DNA of 32,000 nucleotides from Ruminococcus albus 7 = DSM 20455 (lineage in GTDB: Bacteria > Bacillota > Clostridia > Oscillospirales > Ruminococcaceae): positions 3,480,001 to 3,512,000 of the forward strand of contig NC_014833.1 in the NCBI RefSeq assembly GCF_000179635.2. Reading direction: 5' to 3'. Positions 14,853 to 20,037 of the stretch are shown piece after piece. Numbering within the stretch: position 1 is the first letter of the stretch; each line of letters opens with the position of its first letter. A model generated the notes under the pieces. The model saw only the letters and a list, made by a program, of their open reading frames with translations, did no database searches and was not told where the DNA came from. Made by a program: the position numbers and the translations under genes.

Positions 14853-16064
14853 ATGGCTAAGATTCAGATGAAAACACCGCTGGTCGAAATGGACGGCGAC
14901 GAGATGACAAGGATAATCTGGCAGGAGATAAAGGACATACTGATAACACCTTATGTTGATCTCAAGTCGGATTACTACGATCTTGGACTCGTTCACAGAA
15001 ACGAGACCAACGATCAGGTAACTGTTGATTCAGCAAACGCTACCAAGAAGTACGGCGTTGCAGTAAAGTGCGCTACCATAACACCTAATGCTGCAAGAAT
15101 GACAGAGTATAATCTGAAAGAGATGTGGAAGTCCCCTAACGGCACTATCCGTGCTATGCTGGACGGCACTGTTTTCAGAACACCTATACTCGTTAAGGGA
15201 ATAACACCCTATATCCCCACATGGACAAAGCCTATCACTATCGCACGTCATGCTTACGGCGATGTTTACAAGAATGTTGAGATGAAGTGCCCCGCAGGTG
15301 CCAAGGCTGAACTGGTATGCACCGATAAGGACGGCAACGAGACCCGTGAGACTATCTACAACTTTGAGTGCGACGGCGTTATACAGGGTATGCACAACAA
15401 GTCTACCTCTATAGCATCATTTGCAAAGAGCGTTTTCAACTTCGCACTGGATACCAAGCAGGACGTTTGGTTCGCAACAAAGGATACCATATCCAAGAAA
15501 TATGACCACACATTCAAGGATATCTTCAACGAGATATTCGAGAACGAGTACAAGGCTAAGTTTGAAGCTGCAGGCATCGAGTATTTCTACACACTGATAG
15601 ACGATGCTGTTGCAAGAGTTGTACGTTCAAACGGCGGCTACATCTGGGCTTGCAAGAACTACGACGGTGACGTTATGTCCGACATGGTAGCTACAGCTTA
15701 CGGTTCACTGGCTATGATGACTTCCGTACTGGTATCGCCCGATGGCGTATACGAGTTCGAGGCTGCACACGGCACAGTTCAGAGACACTACTACAAGCAC
15801 CTGAAGGGCGAGGAGACTTCTACAAACTCTGTTGCTACACTGTTTGCATGGACAGGTGCGCTTCGCAAGAGAGGCGAGCTGGACGAGCTGCCCGAGCTGG
15901 TAAACTTTGCTGATTGTCTTGAAAAGGCAACTATCAAGACCATTGAAGACGGCATAATGACAGGTGATCTGTACCTGCTCTCCAAGCTGGAGAACAAGCA
16001 GAAGGTCAACACAGAGGACTTCCTGAAGGCTGTTGACGAAAGACTGAAGGCTATGCTCGGCTGA
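14853..16064 (+). CDS. icd: NADP-dependent isocitrate dehydrogenase (eukaryote-like homodimeric type, about 403 aa)
   Basis: The start [23 protein letters not shown] and the motifs [14 protein letters not shown] and HGTV.RHY are typical. The start is trimmed to the ATG at 14853, behind AAGGAGGG. Confidence 0.92.
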
Positions 16065-16077
16065 TCATAAAAATTCA

Positions 16078-16109
16078 AAGCGGAGAGCTTTTGCTCTCCG
16101 CTTTTTTTG
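16078..16109 (+). terminator. Intrinsic terminator after icd
   Basis: AAAGCGGAGAGC-tttt-GCTCTCCGCTTT is followed by a T-run. Confidence 0.85.
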
Positions 16110-16253
16110 CGACCATAAATCGCGCCTTATCCATTAACAAACAGCTGCCGCGGCGGATATAACGGGCTTTTCACGGGAGATACATTCCACCCGCCACCGA
16201 TGCGGCGGTGAGCCGTTTTAATATCTTATGCTTTTTACACATGATATGACACA

Positions 16254-16285
16254 TAAAAAGAGCCGCCGTTAAATCGGCGGCTCTC
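16254..16285 (-). terminator. Intrinsic terminator on the minus strand, the proposed 3' end of the repeat-containing transcript
   Basis: The minus strand reads GAGCCGCCG-atttaa-CGGCGGCTC then TTTTT (the plus-strand A-run 16255-16259). Confidence 0.7.
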
Positions 16286-16299
16286 TGACGATCCAAAAT

Positions 16300-17735
16300 T
16301 AAGCCATTGGACTTTGATCCTTTCGTAAAATAAATATATATAAGTAAATCTGAAACCTTCACCCGCACTGCAAGTAAACTCAAAACAAACGCGCAGGTAC
16401 AAATATCATATTTCCATTGGAACTGATTTCCTTTCGGTAAGAGAAAATTTTTGTCGGGAAAAAACTTAACTTCTCATCGGATTTACTACCTTTCAATATA
16501 TTTTATACGTCGTGCTCCGCATACGCGAAAATTCAAATCAAGCCATTGGTCTAAACCCTTTCGTAAAATTTTAACGCACACGCGTCATAATATCGGGATA
16601 TTCCGTTATGCTCCGGAACTAAGCTGTATTTATCTTCGGGATCACTCCTGACTATAAATTATCAACCGTTAACTCCCATTCATCAGGATCAACGTGCTGC
16701 GGACTTACTTGCCCGCCAAAGGTCGGATCATTTGTCAACTATGCCATTGGAACCTTTTCCTTTCGGTAGATTAACGCTTTCGCGCTCTTGTCGGGACGCT
16801 CCCTTTAGCTCGGAAGCTAAGCTGCTACACCCTTCGGAATCACTCCTATCTCTCAGATATTCAGCAGTCTTGTGCGCATTTTCATAATGCACCACTCCCT
16901 ATTATAAGATATGCGGCATTTCCTGCCGTACATTATTGACGTCAGTCAAACCAATTTATGCCATTGGTATCTTTCCTTTCGGTAGATTTGCGCTTTCGCG
17001 CTCTTGTCGGGACGCTCCCTTTAGCTCGGAAGCTAAGCTGCTACACCCTTCGGAATCACTCCTATCTCTCAGATATTCAGCAGTCTTGTGCGCATTTTCA
17101 TAATGCACCACTCCCTATTATAAGATATGCGGCATTTCCTGCCGTACATTATTGACGTCAGTCAAACCAATTTATGCCATTGGTATCTTTCCTTTCGGTA
17201 GATTTACGCTTTCGCGTTCTTGTCGGGATGTTCCTCTAGCTCAGGAACTAAGCTGCGTTGTACTTGGGACTCACTCCTCACTCTCAAATTCTCAGCAGTT
17301 TTACGTGCATTACCATAATGCAACACTCCCTAACCTAATATTGTTTTCGGCTTCATGCCGAAATCTGATCAATATAAAATCATGCCATCGGACTAACACC
17401 TTTCGGTAGATTTGCGCTCTCGCGCTTTCATCGGAATGCTTCCTTCCGCTCGGAAGCTAAGCTGCGTAGAACTTCGGACTCACTCCCCTCTTTTATAATT
17501 ATTATCAAACTCCCCCGTCAACAACGGAGATATTCAATTTTAAGTTCTGAGTATCCGCCTTGTATAAACGAATTAGTATAGCCATCCGCAGACCCGTTTA
17601 CTTCTTGCTTTGATAACCTCATCATTCGGAACTGTCAGCCCATACGTCTGAGTCCGTTCCCGGTCTTTCAAGATCTCCACGAGCCCTGAATACTCAAAAG
17701 GCTCTCGCTTACATCCATCGGACTCGCTCCCTTCC
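16300..17735 (-). repeat. Array of 7-8 tandem diverged repeat units with period about 110-217 bp
   Basis: Each unit is anchored on the plus strand by (G/T)CCAT(T/C)GG. These anchors lie at about 16303, 16414, 16543, 16743, 16960, 17177, 17385 and 17714. Each is followed by CCTTTCG(G)TA. Confidence 0.85.
16741..17174 (-). repeat. Near-perfect tandem duplication (217 + 216 bp) inside the array
   Basis: Units 16741-16957 and 16958-17173 are identical over about 175 nt. They differ only in the first roughly 40 nt. Confidence 0.95.
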
Positions 17736-17945
17736 GGATATACTAAGATCTGACGGAGTCTGCACCGCTTTTTTAGATGGACCCTCGTCCTGCACTGACT
17801 GCGGCACCTTTACTCATTTCCGTAAAGATCTCATTTTAAGGAACTATCAGCTTTATTACCAAGACCCGGCGATAACAACGTGCCTTTCGGCTCATCTCCG
17901 CCATCGCCTTATTGATTTTTATCTGCTTTCCTTTTCCTTGAATAT

Positions 17946-17974
17946 ACTATACCACATTTTTTGGTGTTTGTCAA
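17946..17974 (-). promoter_or_regulatory. Near-consensus sigma-A promoter pointing into the repeat array
   Basis: The minus strand reads TTGACA (17974-17969), a 17-nt spacer ending in TGG (extended -10), then TATAGT (17951-17946). Confidence 0.6.
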
Positions 17975-18052
17975 TAGTTTTTTTCAACATTTCTATATTT
18001 TTTATATTTAACTTACAAAGAAAAGTGTTACAGATGCTTCAGAAAAAACTGC

Positions 18053-18081
18053 TTGACTTATTTGGTAATTTGTAGTATAAT
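18053..18081 (+). promoter_or_regulatory. Sigma-A promoter for the DUF1292 gene
   Basis: TTGACT (18053-18058), a 17-nt spacer, then TATAAT (18076-18081). Confidence 0.7.
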
Positions 18082-18089
18082 GTAAATGT

Positions 18090-18132
18090 TGCGGCGGTCA
18101 GACGGCGGTCAGATAACGCCGCATTTGTTTTT
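18090..18132 (+). promoter_or_regulatory. Terminator-like hairpin in the 5' leader (possible attenuator)
   Basis: TGCGGCG (18090-18096) pairs with CGCCGCA (18117-18123) and is followed by TTTGTTTTT, immediately before the RBS AAGGAGG. The 5' arm is duplicated (CGGCGGTCAGA twice). Confidence 0.45.
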
Positions 18133-18147
18133 AAGGAGGTCATTAGT

Positions 18148-18480
18148 ATGGATGAGCAGATGAATGAATACACCCCCGATCTTTATGAACTGATGGACGA
18201 GGAAGGCAACAAGCAGACCTTTGAACTGCTGGACTGCATGGACTTCGAGGGCGAGAGATATTATGCGCTTACTCCTTTCTATGAGGAAGATAATGCCGAC
18301 AAGATACTTGATGAAGCTTCGCTGCTTGTTATACTGAAGGCAGAGTACGACAATGAAACAGGCGAAGAGATCCTTGCTTCTATCGAGGATGAGGAACTGT
18401 TCGACCGTGTAGGTGAAGCTTTTGAACAGCGTCTGGAAGAGATGTTCGATTTTGAAGATGACGAAGAAGATGGAGAATAA
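18148..18480 (+). CDS. DUF1292-family small acidic protein
   Basis: YELMDEEGNKQTFELLDCMDFEGERYYALTP and a very acidic C-terminus are typical of the DUF1292 (YrzB-like) family. A strong RBS is present. Confidence 0.85.
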   Translation: MDEQMNEYTPDLYELMDEEGNKQTFELLDCMDFEGERYYALTPFYEEDNADKILDEASLLVILKAEYDNETGEEILASIEDEELFDRVGEAFEQRLEEMFDFEDDEEDGE

Positions 18481-18583: not shown

Positions 18584-18885
18584 ACAATAAGGGAAGCGGA
18601 AAGCTTCCTGTGAACAAGGTTTTTAGATTGCTACCTTGTTCGACCAAGCATAGCTTTTTAAATCCAACACTTATTAAAAGGGATTCGCACTCTTTCCGAA
18701 GATTGAAGACCTCCCGCCCGAACCGCTTATGCCGTTCGGTCTACGGACGAAGGGATCATGAGACTGAAAGGTCGTTTTACCCACCCTGCACATTGATGCG
18801 GGTTTACATTCTATGCGACGGCAAGGCGGCAATTTATCTTAAAAACAGAGCTGACAGATCCTATCTGTCAGCTTTTCTTTTTATA
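18584..18885 (+). ncRNA. Candidate roughly 300-nt structured RNA or long cis-regulatory leader, class not recognised
   Basis: It runs from the predicted start site to a strong intrinsic terminator. It contains several hairpins: GGAAGC/GCTTCC at 18592-18608, a 9-bp stem at 18612-18641, and CCGAAC/GTTCGG at 18718-18739. The overlapping ORF-track frame has no RBS and non-protein-like composition. Confidence 0.4.
18849..18882 (+). terminator. Intrinsic terminator 50 nt upstream of the alcohol dehydrogenase start
   Basis: An 11-bp stem AGCTGACAGAT-cct-ATCTGTCAGCT is followed by TTTTCTTTTT. An A-run upstream makes it potentially bidirectional. Confidence 0.85.
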
Positions 18886-18933
18886 TTTCATTTTCTGCGC
18901 AGTATATACAAACATTCAAAGGAGGCAGATGTC

Positions 18934-20037
18934 ATGCAGAAGTTGATAGATAACAGCACAGAGGCGCTTGACAGATATTTTTCGGAGATCGGAGCAAAGC
19001 GTATAATGCTGGTAGGCGGCAGGTCTATGGACAGACTTGATATCGGCAGGTATTTCAATGAGCTCACCGCACGCACAGGTATAGAGGTAGTGCGGTTTTC
19101 TGATTTCAAGCCAAATCCCGATTACAGTTCCGCGCTCGCAGGGACAGCACTTTACAAAGAAAAGGGCTGTGATATGATAGTTGCCGTCGGCGGAGGTTCA
19201 GCTATGGATACCGCAAAATGCATAAAGATGTATGCTACTATGGATGACACTGAGGACTACATCACTCAGAAGATAATTCCCAACGATATCGAATTTTTTG
19301 CCGTTCCCACTACAGCCGGCACAGGCAGCGAAGCTACACGATATGCCATAATTTACCACAACGGCAGCAAGGTATCCGTAACGGACAGCAGCTGCATACC
19401 GACCGCAGTGCTGTTTGACCCTTCCGTACTGAAGACTCTTCCCGACTATCATAAGAAAGCCACTATGATGGATGCTTTGTGTCACGCAGTAGAAAGCTAC
19501 TGGTCTGTTCATTCGACCGATGAAAGCAAAACATACGCTGCCGAAGCCATAAAGCTCATATTCTCGGCCATGGGCGGATATCTCGCAAATACCGACTCCG
19601 GCAACGAAGATATGCTGAGAGCATCAAACTTAGCAGGCAAGGCGATAAACATCACAGCAACAACAGCAGGCCATGCCATGTGCTACAAGCTCACCACAAA
19701 GTACGGACTTGCTCACGGTCACGCAGCTGCGCTTTGCGTAAAGGCGCTGTTCCCATTCATGGTCAAAAACACCTCTCTTTGCAAAGATATGCGCGGAGAG
19801 AAGTATTTCAAAAATATGCTTGATGAGCTTGCCGGCATTATGGGCTGCAGCTCAGCCTTATCGGCTGCCGAATGCTTCGGCACACTTACCGACAGTCTGG
19901 GTCTTGGTGCACCTTCTGCCGACAAAGATGATATCGAACTGCTGGTATCCTCGGTAAATGCCGAGCGCCTGAAAAACCATCCCGTCACCCTGGACAGCAG
20001 CACTATATCATACCTGTACAAAAACATCGTATCATAA
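18934..20037 (+). CDS. Iron-containing (group III) alcohol dehydrogenase family protein
   Basis: The start is trimmed to the ATG at 18934, behind AAAGGAGG. It carries the GGGSAMDTAKC dinucleotide motif and His-rich metal-site contexts (CHAVESYW, GHAMCY, HGHAAA). Confidence 0.85.
   Translation: MQKLIDNSTEALDRYFSEIGAKRIMLVGGRSMDRLDIGRYFNELTARTGIEVVRFSDFKPNPDYSSALAGTALYKEKGCDMIVAVGGGSAMDTAKCIKMYATMDDTEDYITQKIIPNDIEFFAVPTTAGTGSEATRYAIIYHNGSKVSVTDSSCIPTAVLFDPSVLKTLPDYHKKATMMDALCHAVESYWSVHSTDESKTYAAEAIKLIFSAMGGYLANTDSGNEDMLRASNLAGKAINITATTAGHAMCYKLTTKYGLAHGHAAALCVKALFPFMVKNTSLCKDMRGEKYFKNMLDELAGIMGCSSALSAAECFGTLTDSLGLGAPSADKDDIELLVSSVNAERLKNHPVTLDSSTISYLYKNIVS

Follow-up and report, generated by a model that had tools for sequence, protein, structure and literature searches.

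In the bar minigenes of phage lambda and in synthetic toxic minigenes, a Shine-Dalgarno (SD) sequence and an AUG are followed by only one or two sense codons before the stop. The bar type is further characterised by peptidyl-tRNA drop-off and tRNA sequestration upon translation, with toxicity where Pth is limiting. Toxic minigenes are described as acting by tRNA sequestering (PMC2490762). The start-stop open reading frames (ORFs) of Escherichia coli, including those of yecJ and hslR, are initiation sites without a useful product, in which AUG and stop follow each other out of frame inside protein genes, one per gene, and they have been proposed to act through ribosome occupancy (10.1101/520783). 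Abundant sponge RNAs such as CsrB and RsmZ carry many copies of a short motif, GGA, preferably as A(N)GGA, in hairpin loops, on a structured scaffold that binds CsrA, and their copy number varies between relatives. 6S RNA is a decoy that mimics open promoter DNA for RNA polymerase and becomes the template for a tiny abortive product, and OLE, GOLLD, ROOL and raiA are long, conserved, structured and lineage-restricted RNAs with their own promoter and terminator. In Bacillus, STAB-SD elements and other 5' stabilisers, that is, SD-like sequences or very short translated ORFs, bind ribosomes and protect RNA. Here, we describe an RNA gene on the minus strand of a 32,000-nucleotide (nt) stretch of Ruminococcus albus 7 (DSM 20455; assembly GCF_000179635.2, contig NC_014833.1, positions 3,480,001 to 3,512,000 of the forward strand; 'the window', to which all coordinates refer). 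It lies between icd and a gene for a DUF1292 protein, and its most conserved part is a repeated translation-initiation site with a very short reading frame, which may serve to load ribosomes rather than to encode a product.

Predicted initiation sites and their early stops

One element, GAAAGG-N6-10-CCRAUG(G), is common to every unit of the RNA in every species, on the minus strand only. GAAAGG is complementary to CCUUUC near the 3' end of the 16S ribosomal RNA of Firmicutes, a sequence that may not be exactly that of the host. Nine AUGs of the predicted window transcript are preceded by SDs whose duplexes with the anti-SD of the Firmicutes consensus have calculated energies of -8.7 to -13.5 kcal/mol; their mean of -10.2 kcal/mol compares with -10.9 kcal/mol for the called genes of the window and with -4.1 +/- 2.9 kcal/mol for random positions, so that in SD strength the sites resemble real genes. 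The preliminary description of this locus had stated that no ORF here has a ribosome-binding site, which these nine AUGs contradict. The spacer between GAAAGG and AUG measures 8-13 nt with a peak at 10-11 nt, equivalent, when aligned on GGAGG, to the 7-9 nt of the called window genes. The nine sites open ORFs of 2, 3 or 16 codons; within the transcript, strong SDs are found only before AUGs whose ORFs have 16 codons or fewer, whereas AUGs without an SD open ORFs of up to 35.

The first site (17668-17735, minus strand, as for all sites below) has the strongest SD, GGAAGGGAG at 17735-17727, with a duplex energy of -13.5 kcal/mol; its AUG lies at 17718-17716 and its 16-codon ORF, MDVSESLLSIQGSWRS, ends with the stop at 17670-17668. 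The remaining eight are mini-ORFs. Number 2 (17380-17404) reads GAAAGG-10 nt-AUG GCA UGA, that is, M-A-stop (-8.9 kcal/mol), and numbers 3 (17172-17196) and 4 (16956-16980) both read GAAAGG-10 nt-AUG GCA UAA (-10.1 kcal/mol each). They are followed by number 5 (16739-16764; GAAAGG-11 nt-AUG GCA UAG; -11.2 kcal/mol) and number 6 (16538-16562; GAAAGG-10 nt-AUG GCU UGA; -8.7 kcal/mol). The short units contribute number 7 (16466-16494; GAAAGG-11 nt-AUG AGA AGU UAA, M-R-S-stop; -9.7 kcal/mol), an ORF found in identical form in 19 loci, and number 8 (16406-16435; GAAAGG-12 nt-AUG GAA AUA UGA, M-E-I-stop; -9.8 kcal/mol). Number 9, in the last unit (16299-16324; GAAAGG-11 nt-AUG GCU UAA; -9.6 kcal/mol), lies 18 nt upstream of the terminator, and this succession of last mini-ORF and terminator recurs in R. 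albus-type relatives.

The frame opened by the AUG closes early. Of 208 non-redundant copies, which are related by descent, 97 have their stop in this frame at codon 3, a further 57 at codon 4 and five at codon 5, hence after one to three sense codons in 159 of the 208, whereas in the other two frames the stops are broadly distributed and none occurs within 20 codons in 59 and 57 copies. At codon 3 the stop is TAA in 48 copies, TAG in 26 and TGA in 23, and TGG is never found there. There are 55 distinct mini-ORF sequences, all of at most four sense codons and most commonly AUG GCU UAA, AUG GCU UGA, AUG AGA AGU UAA and AUG GCA UAA, and equivalent units of the arrays of related species may differ at several bases with the frame still closed at the same codon (for example GAA AUG UGA, GAU AAA UGA and GAA AAG UAA). 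We take this comparison of copies to show that the early in-frame stops are under selection. Since they are specific to one frame, selection appears to 'see' that frame, which argues that ribosomes start there, their binding itself being what we infer. GCU or GCA directly follows the AUG in 76 of the 97 M-X-stop ORFs, and alanine at position 2 is among the features reported for highly expressed genes (PMC1397820). The anatomy of a minigene, namely SD, start codon, few sense codons and stop, is thus found in the 159 copies, with an SD strength, as calculated for the window sites, equal to that of real genes, and the AUG-stop arrangement of the start-stop sites in only two of the 208. As no product is conserved among the copies compared, the RNA can in that sense be called non-coding.

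The number of sites per RNA ranges from one to three in R. flavefaciens-type loci to eight to ten in R. albus-type loci. Neighbouring sites are almost never less than 50 nt apart (one pair lies at 43 nt), and in tight arrays they follow each other every 54-61 nt, which is about the stretch of mRNA covered by an initiating ribosome. The start-site motif itself has no supporting covariation.

Two further elements of the modules resemble these sites. A sister motif, GGAGUGAGUCCSAAG (e.g. at 17062-17040), has a layout like that of the start-site motif with AAG in the place of AUG; its AAG frame is closed within six codons in 57 of 66 non-redundant copies, the other frames being broad. It contains an in-frame GUG, and in modules of the R. 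albus type the AAG frame ends in ...GCA GCU UAG; the motif may have a structural role or form one more short ORF. Module 1 also has, in its 3' half, a 10-codon ORF with a GGGAG SD (17284-17316), which overlaps a predicted hairpin and has equivalents at 17069-17101 and 16853-16885; the SD:anti-SD energies of these 10-codon ORFs are -8.2 to -10.5 kcal/mol.

Transcription unit, modules and relatives

From the stop of icd (16064), 2084 nt extend to the start of DUF1292 (18148), and they hold no ORF longer than 85 amino acids. On the minus strand of this interval, a sigma-A-type promoter with an extended -10 element (17946-17974; TTGACA-17 nt-TGgTATAGT) agrees with the consensus at 11 of 12 positions plus the TG, and transcription is predicted to start at the A of AAGGAAAAGGAAAGCAG at 17939, 7 nt past the -10 element. 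The sequence of the 5' end, CAAGGAAAAGGAAAGCAG, is kept across species. At the other end, an intrinsic terminator (16254-16286) consists of AGAGAGCCGCCG-AUUUAA-CGGCGGCUCUUU and a U run; its hairpin (16286-16257) has a 12-bp stem with eight G-C pairs, and the terminator of icd is a separate, bidirectional hairpin at 16077-16104. The gap, the promoter, the terminator and the existence of an independent minus-strand unit of about 1.7 kb had all been put forward in the preliminary description and are supported by these features together with the 5' domain, the modules and their conservation, the unit as such being predicted from sequence. That description had also called the unit convergent with icd; the orientation is correct and the arrangement incidental, given that other R. 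albus strains have a different left neighbour and keep the 2.1-kb gene-free gap upstream of DUF1292. An imperfect 15-nt direct repeat (TGCGGCGGTGAGCCG at 16201-16215 and TGCGGCGGTCAGACG at 18090-18104; 87% identity) flanks the RNA gene on both sides with its copies 1889 nt apart, and may be due to chance or be a trace of how the locus was assembled.

The predicted RNA begins with the unique 5' domain of about 450 nt (17487-17939) that had been noted before, continues with five full modules of about 200-216 nt and ends with three short units that retain the 3' motif only; the earlier count of seven to eight tandem copies was right about the tandem repetition and wrong about the number. RNAalifold on 12 species predicts 50 pairs in the 5' domain, 13 of them with compensatory changes that are concentrated in four stems. 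Tandem Repeats Finder detects a 216-nt period with 2.7 copies and 91% matches. A covariance model of the module, a check proposed in the preliminary description and built from 35 copies of several species, has five matches of 98-121 bits and two weak partial ones in the window, all on the minus strand of the locus and none elsewhere, and it finds homologous modules in relatives. In the window the full modules are module 1 (17278-17486; match 17494-17377, 115.5 bits), module 2 (17063-17277; match 17285-17169, 121.1 bits), module 3 (16847-17062; match 17070-16953, 121.1 bits), module 4 (16649-16846; match 16854-16736, 118.8 bits) and the diverged module 5 with its shorter 3' half (16491-16648; match 16656-16535, 97.8 bits). 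Module 3 is 99% identical to the next 216 nt, the two successive stretches forming repeat family D2.

Two hairpins of the module covary. Hairpin S2 (17014-17033 in module 3; GCUUCC, a loop starting with GAGC, and GGGAGC) has changes on both sides at five of its six pairs and 98% of cells paired in the 35 copies, and all six pairs covary in independent matches. Hairpin S3, a GC hairpin (16990-17001 in module 3; GCGC-GAAA-GCGC), covaries at three of four pairs in the 35 copies and at all four in independent matches, and its loop sequence is not conserved. Over the module core 96% of cells are paired, compared with 28-44% in slid controls, and none of 500 shuffles reached its covariation score. 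In 38 matches from species outside the model, all S2 and S3 pairs covary where the hairpins exist; the hairpins are absent in about two thirds of these matches, and in distant relatives the linear motifs persist without them. The G-U pairs of the stems fit the minus strand only, which, with the strand-specific matches of the model, confirms the strand assigned previously. The conserved GNRA loops once cited for that assignment did not hold up, as the loops of the GC hairpin differ widely in relatives, and the supposed conserved CCGAAAGG tetraloop is better read as an SD. A helix closing the repeated motif, with CC...GG outside and GG...CC inside, was rejected: its outer pairs form in only 77% of cells and do not covary, and the inner ones never vary. 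Hairpins enclosing the SD or the mini-ORF can be drawn by eye, in a register that differs between copies, and a module pseudoknot (GCUU/GAGC) is always pairable and nearly invariant.

Beyond the window, the RNA forms a family that is conserved beside the DUF1292 and 6S RNA genes, without a tie to icd, as the loci compared indicate. A DUF1292 protein identical to that of the window is present in several assemblies and rumen metagenomes, all from one species, and its closest named relatives are from R. albus. In GCA_000621285.1 (locus L004) the gap is 1868 nt instead of 2084 nt, exactly one 216-nt unit less, and the RNAs of L013 (about 1541 nt) and L011 (about 1754 nt) likewise differ in length, so that strains of a single species vary in module number. 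In more distant relatives the gaps upstream of DUF1292 measure 1.4 and 1.7 kb. When one genome per species was scanned with a DUF1292 profile, 80 loci were obtained, almost exclusively from Ruminococcus and including R. flavefaciens FD-1 and YL228. A promoter with the architecture TTGAC(A/T)-17-TGTGnTAnnnT lies on the strand opposite to DUF1292 and 130-340 nt upstream of it in about 70 of 84 loci from different species, at a place equivalent to that in the window, and the 5' end, as CAAGGAAAAGGAAAGCAG or a variant such as CAAGAAAACAAG, is kept in the 29 loci where it could be extracted. For 51 of 71 loci, a crude scan detects a comparable terminator hairpin with a T run behind the last motif. 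Loci without the promoter have almost no gap, paralogous DUF1292 genes and no motif. RNA length is 0.5-0.65 kb in the R. flavefaciens type, about 0.9-1.4 kb in intermediate loci and 1.5-1.9 kb in the R. albus type. Altogether, about 70 Ruminococcus species have such a unit of 0.5-1.9 kb, from promoter to terminator, divergent from DUF1292. The comparison with homologous loci, named beforehand as a possible refutation, thus finds promoter, 5' end, motifs and terminator kept and the stems covarying.

For this family, the Ruminococcus mini-ORF array RNA, which as far as seen is restricted to Ruminococcus, we propose five defining features: a strong divergent promoter upstream of DUF1292-6S, a CAAGGAAA 5' end, an intrinsic terminator, a first site with a 16-18-codon ORF, and at least one GAAAGG-N-CCRAUG mini-ORF. 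The window RNA has all five. A tandem-motif scan of metagenomes gave 105 stretches, most of which belong to the same family, come from human-gut and rumen samples, and carry the promoter, the 5' end and the divergent DUF1292 gene; metagenome arrays of 69-nt period without stops were set aside as unrelated repeats, as was the single match in viral contigs, a 33-nt-period repeat without stops. In a human-gut Ruminococcus (DUF1292 58% identical; L104-L200, many contigs) the ORFs measure 18, 3, 3, 3, 2 and 2 codons, a pattern nearly invariant across dozens of independent samples. Two contigs of the metagenome-assembled genome RGIG4311 (L022 and L023) both hold DUF1292 plus the RNA, which reflects either a duplicated locus or strain heterogeneity in the bin.

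Some short contigs from the Joint Genome Institute, which except for one chimera contain nothing but the RNA, look transcript-derived, in the manner of metatranscriptome assemblies, and would be suggestive of an abundant RNA. L108 (Ga0138321_10059360) matches window positions 17929-16289 at 99% in a length of 1425 nt, with the near-identical repeats collapsed and without flanking sequence; its match begins 10 nt downstream of the predicted start and stops 3 nt short of the terminator stem. L102 (Ga0352984_1023003) and L159 (Ga0326508_1025994) begin 12 nt inside the predicted start, and L151 (Ga0256870_1037594) is a chimera with an eukaryote-like EF-hand coding sequence in which the RNA homology ends exactly at 17939.

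The neighbouring DUF1292 gene has, in its upstream region (18053-18147, plus strand), a near-consensus promoter of its own (TTGACT-17-TATAAT, 18053-18081). Its short leader contains an 11-nt tandem repeat, CGGCGGTCAGA, in two copies at 18092-18113 and, directly before the ribosome-binding site, a terminator-like hairpin plus T run (18105-18122, plus) that could be an attenuator. A profile search found no relative of DUF1292 in the Protein Data Bank and gave no functional lead, and its AlphaFold model (mean pLDDT 76.7) has no Foldseek match below E = 0.26. 6S RNA follows DUF1292 at gathering score in nine loci (L027, L031, L062, L068, L071, L083, L087, L089 and L093). In a search of 600 nt, the window's own 6S RNA (18625-18836, plus) reaches 39.7 bits (E = 1.4e-6), less than the 46.4 bits that Rfam sets as gathering score; a mechanical ORF at 18610-20037 overlaps it, and the called Fe-ADH gene starts at 18934.

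Known RNA families gave no match, in agreement with the preliminary description, which had recognised no known consensus and proposed the Rfam scan. Rfam 15 at gathering thresholds has no match in the window and none in the RNA region of the homologous stretches of 19 related loci, and in E-value mode positions 16000-18200 (2,201 nt) yield sub-threshold matches only, mostly at terminators, the best reaching 25.3 bits against a gathering score of 50 and lying on the terminator. The models that stay below gathering score include OLE, GOLLD, ROOL, raiA, HEARO, riboswitches, T-box and ribozymes, and ARAGORN finds no tRNA, tmRNA or tRNA-like element in the window. Nothing favours the earlier idea of a multi-aptamer RNA, as no Rfam gathering score is reached and the hairpins are often missing in distant relatives. 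A type III toxin-antitoxin system, whose short ToxI-like tandem repeats are succeeded on their own strand, past a terminator, by the gene of a toxin endoribonuclease, was rejected as well: downstream on the minus strand lie only the terminator and the convergent icd, and the downstream neighbours differ between species. In the literature searched on minigene arrays, on start-stop and minimal ORFs in non-coding RNAs, on DUF1292/YrzB and on Ruminococcus non-coding RNAs, we did not find this RNA described.

What the array may do

The reading that we favour, at a little under even chances, is that the RNA is a multi-site ribosome-loading decoy or minigene-array RNA without a functional protein product. 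A strongly transcribed RNA, made of the structured 5' domain and a variable number of modules, would offer in each module a complete translation-initiation region, closed by an early stop, as its functional core. Ribosomes would load at many sites of one RNA, nine in the window and up to ten elsewhere, and each would make at most fMet-X(-X) before terminating or dropping off. The RNA would then engage initiating ribosomes, initiator tRNA, or release and recycling factors as a multivalent decoy and would not be used as a template. The gain to the cell may be titration of initiating ribosomes or initiator tRNA, a load on release and recycling, or peptidyl-tRNA drop-off. The variable number of sites, which differs even between strains, fits a multivalent function of the dosage type; that the motif lacks covariation and is kept where the hairpins are missing counts for initiation sites, and the non-conserved peptides count for ribosome loading.

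Several points weigh against this reading. The SD energies were obtained with a consensus anti-SD that may not be the host's, and, given their common descent, the counts over the 208 copies overstate independence. A bare initiation site explains neither the invariant GAAAGG (GGAGG-type SDs are absent) and the invariant CC before RAUG nor the sister motif with AAG in the place of AUG. The start region of the first-site ORF is predicted to be base-paired in the 12-species RNAalifold structure. Ribosomes recycle fast from ordinary short ORFs, so that real titration would need slow termination or drop-off, and a futile cycle of fMet-Ala synthesis has no obvious benefit.

Within the decoy reading, a bolder proposal, which we consider doubtful but worth stating, is that the RNA is a decoy messenger that tunes global translation capacity in Ruminococcus, the ribosome-directed counterpart of 6S RNA. 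By this analogy its sites would trap ribosomes at initiation, or abortive synthesis of fMet-Ala on them would use up initiator tRNA, Ala-tRNA or the factors of release and recycling; how strong the effect is would depend on the number of modules, in which even strains differ.

The alternative that survives best, to which we would give something over one chance in five, takes up the 'multivalent sponge or scaffold' of the preliminary description, a live idea. The RNA would be a structured scaffold or sponge for a protein or an RNA, with GAAAGG...CCRAUGG as the binding site, perhaps in imitation of the initiation region of a target mRNA, and the stops would have been placed behind each AUG by selection to limit damage from stray translation, a mitigation that has been proposed for the E. 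coli start-stops (10.1101/520783). Such a scaffold would account for the invariant positions without a role in initiation (CC before RAUG, and GAAAGG rather than GGAGG), for a sister motif of the same architecture with AAG instead of AUG, for covarying hairpins in the modules and for a copy number that varies as in CsrB-type sponges. However, features of efficient initiation, that is, SD strength, optimal spacing and Ala as second codon, are kept rather than eroded. No candidate for the partner emerged, the DUF1292 neighbour gave no clue, and neither the window nor the flanking regions of the 80 scanned loci show the motif at the start of any gene. A CsrA sponge of the CsrB/RsmZ type is a rejected candidate, since any of A, U, C and G may follow GAAAGG, so that some copies of the motif have GGA and others lack it; nor was a consistent hairpin enclosing the start-site motif found.

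Somewhat less probable, in our view, is that the RNA acts through its structured parts and that parked ribosomes shield it from decay, both 5'-to-3' and endonucleolytic. In favour of this, strong SDs, each with a very short ORF, occur all along the RNA at intervals of 50 nt or more, the extreme 5' end is itself SD-like (AAGGAAAAGGAAAG) and conserved, and a mini-ORF directly precedes the terminator. Yet the initiation motifs are the best conserved parts and the hairpins are dispensable in distant relatives, the reverse of what is expected of a protective accessory, and no other functional element was identified that such ribosomes would protect.

The two next readings are far weaker. A precursor that is cut into unit-length small RNAs, the third role suggested in the preliminary description, would fit the tandem layout with one promoter and one terminator; we judge it very unlikely, as the Rfam search found no ribozyme or known processing motif, the unit lengths vary from 55 to 216 nt within and between species, and contig L108, with its collapsed repeats, spans the RNA body. 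A shade less likely still is an mRNA for one or more functional small peptides, encoded by the 16-codon or the 10-codon ORFs and followed by a long 3' region. In its favour, the first ORF, which has the strongest SD, is exactly 16 or 18 codons long in 37 non-redundant copies from many species, and in five species GUG replaces AUG as its start codon. But the R. albus and human-gut clades read its conserved GGCUCG in frames that differ, residues 4, 8, 14 and 15 are free to vary, and third codon positions match the others in conservation, which places the conservation at the RNA level. The first-site peptides cannot be aligned between clades, and the amino-acid-level conservation expected of a small-protein gene was not found between them, a signal that peptides of two or three residues are too short to carry. 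Part of this ORF forms a covarying hairpin, and in R. flavefaciens its stop region pairs with its start region, as drawn by eye rather than computed. That the locus is non-functional DNA, be it a gene in decay, the remnant of a mobile element or a neutral tandem repeat, we hold to be next to impossible: two modules are 99% identical and point to a recent duplication, but promoter, 5' end, motifs and terminator are kept in dozens of species with different flanks, the stems covary, and the 2,201-nt interval contains no Rfam match and no remnant of a long ORF.

Relation to known systems

To return to the decoy reading, a conserved cellular RNA that repeats a start site with a frame of two or three codons matches none of the kinds of RNA that we found and appears categorically new, its mechanism being the one we infer above. 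If ribosomes do load on it, this would be the first case of a cellular RNA that works through a conserved, repeated start site whose frame is too short for any product, and translation capacity would be regulated, or an RNA protected, by a purpose-built decoy messenger. The family is found among the major fibre degraders of both rumen and human gut, and could provide a natural test bed for minigenes, for peptidyl-tRNA drop-off and for the fate of ribosomes on minimal ORFs. It is also a caution for annotation, in that intergenic RNAs labelled 'non-coding' can be shaped by a reading frame.

Each of the described systems shares part of this anatomy. The order of SD, AUG, one or two sense codons and stop is that of the lambda bar and synthetic toxic minigenes, a likeness of anatomy only and one read from the letters of the DNA; unlike the bar minigenes, the Ruminococcus sites are chromosomal and genus-wide, arrayed up to ten times in a dedicated structured RNA, and made mostly of common Ala codons. 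They share initiation without a useful product with the start-stop ORFs of E. coli, and differ from them in having one or two sense codons as the norm and in forming an array within a transcript of their own. The many copies of a short motif on a structured scaffold, varying in number between relatives, recall CsrB and RsmZ, with GAAAGG plus CCRAUG and frame-aware stops in the place of GGA loops. Long, structured and lineage-restricted, with its own promoter and terminator, the RNA resembles OLE, GOLLD, ROOL and raiA, but none of their Rfam models matches it, and to our knowledge internal tandem modules and mini-ORFs are not among their features. The STAB-SD elements of Bacillus are single and lie near the 5' end of protein-coding mRNAs, whereas the window RNA has nine sites and no protein gene. 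With 6S RNA, finally, the analogy is conceptual and involves no relation of sequence or structure: a mimic of mRNA that engages the ribosome and yields a tiny peptide would stand beside a mimic of open promoter DNA that engages RNA polymerase and yields a tiny transcript, and the 6S gene lies two genes away from the RNA gene, in the same conserved neighbourhood.

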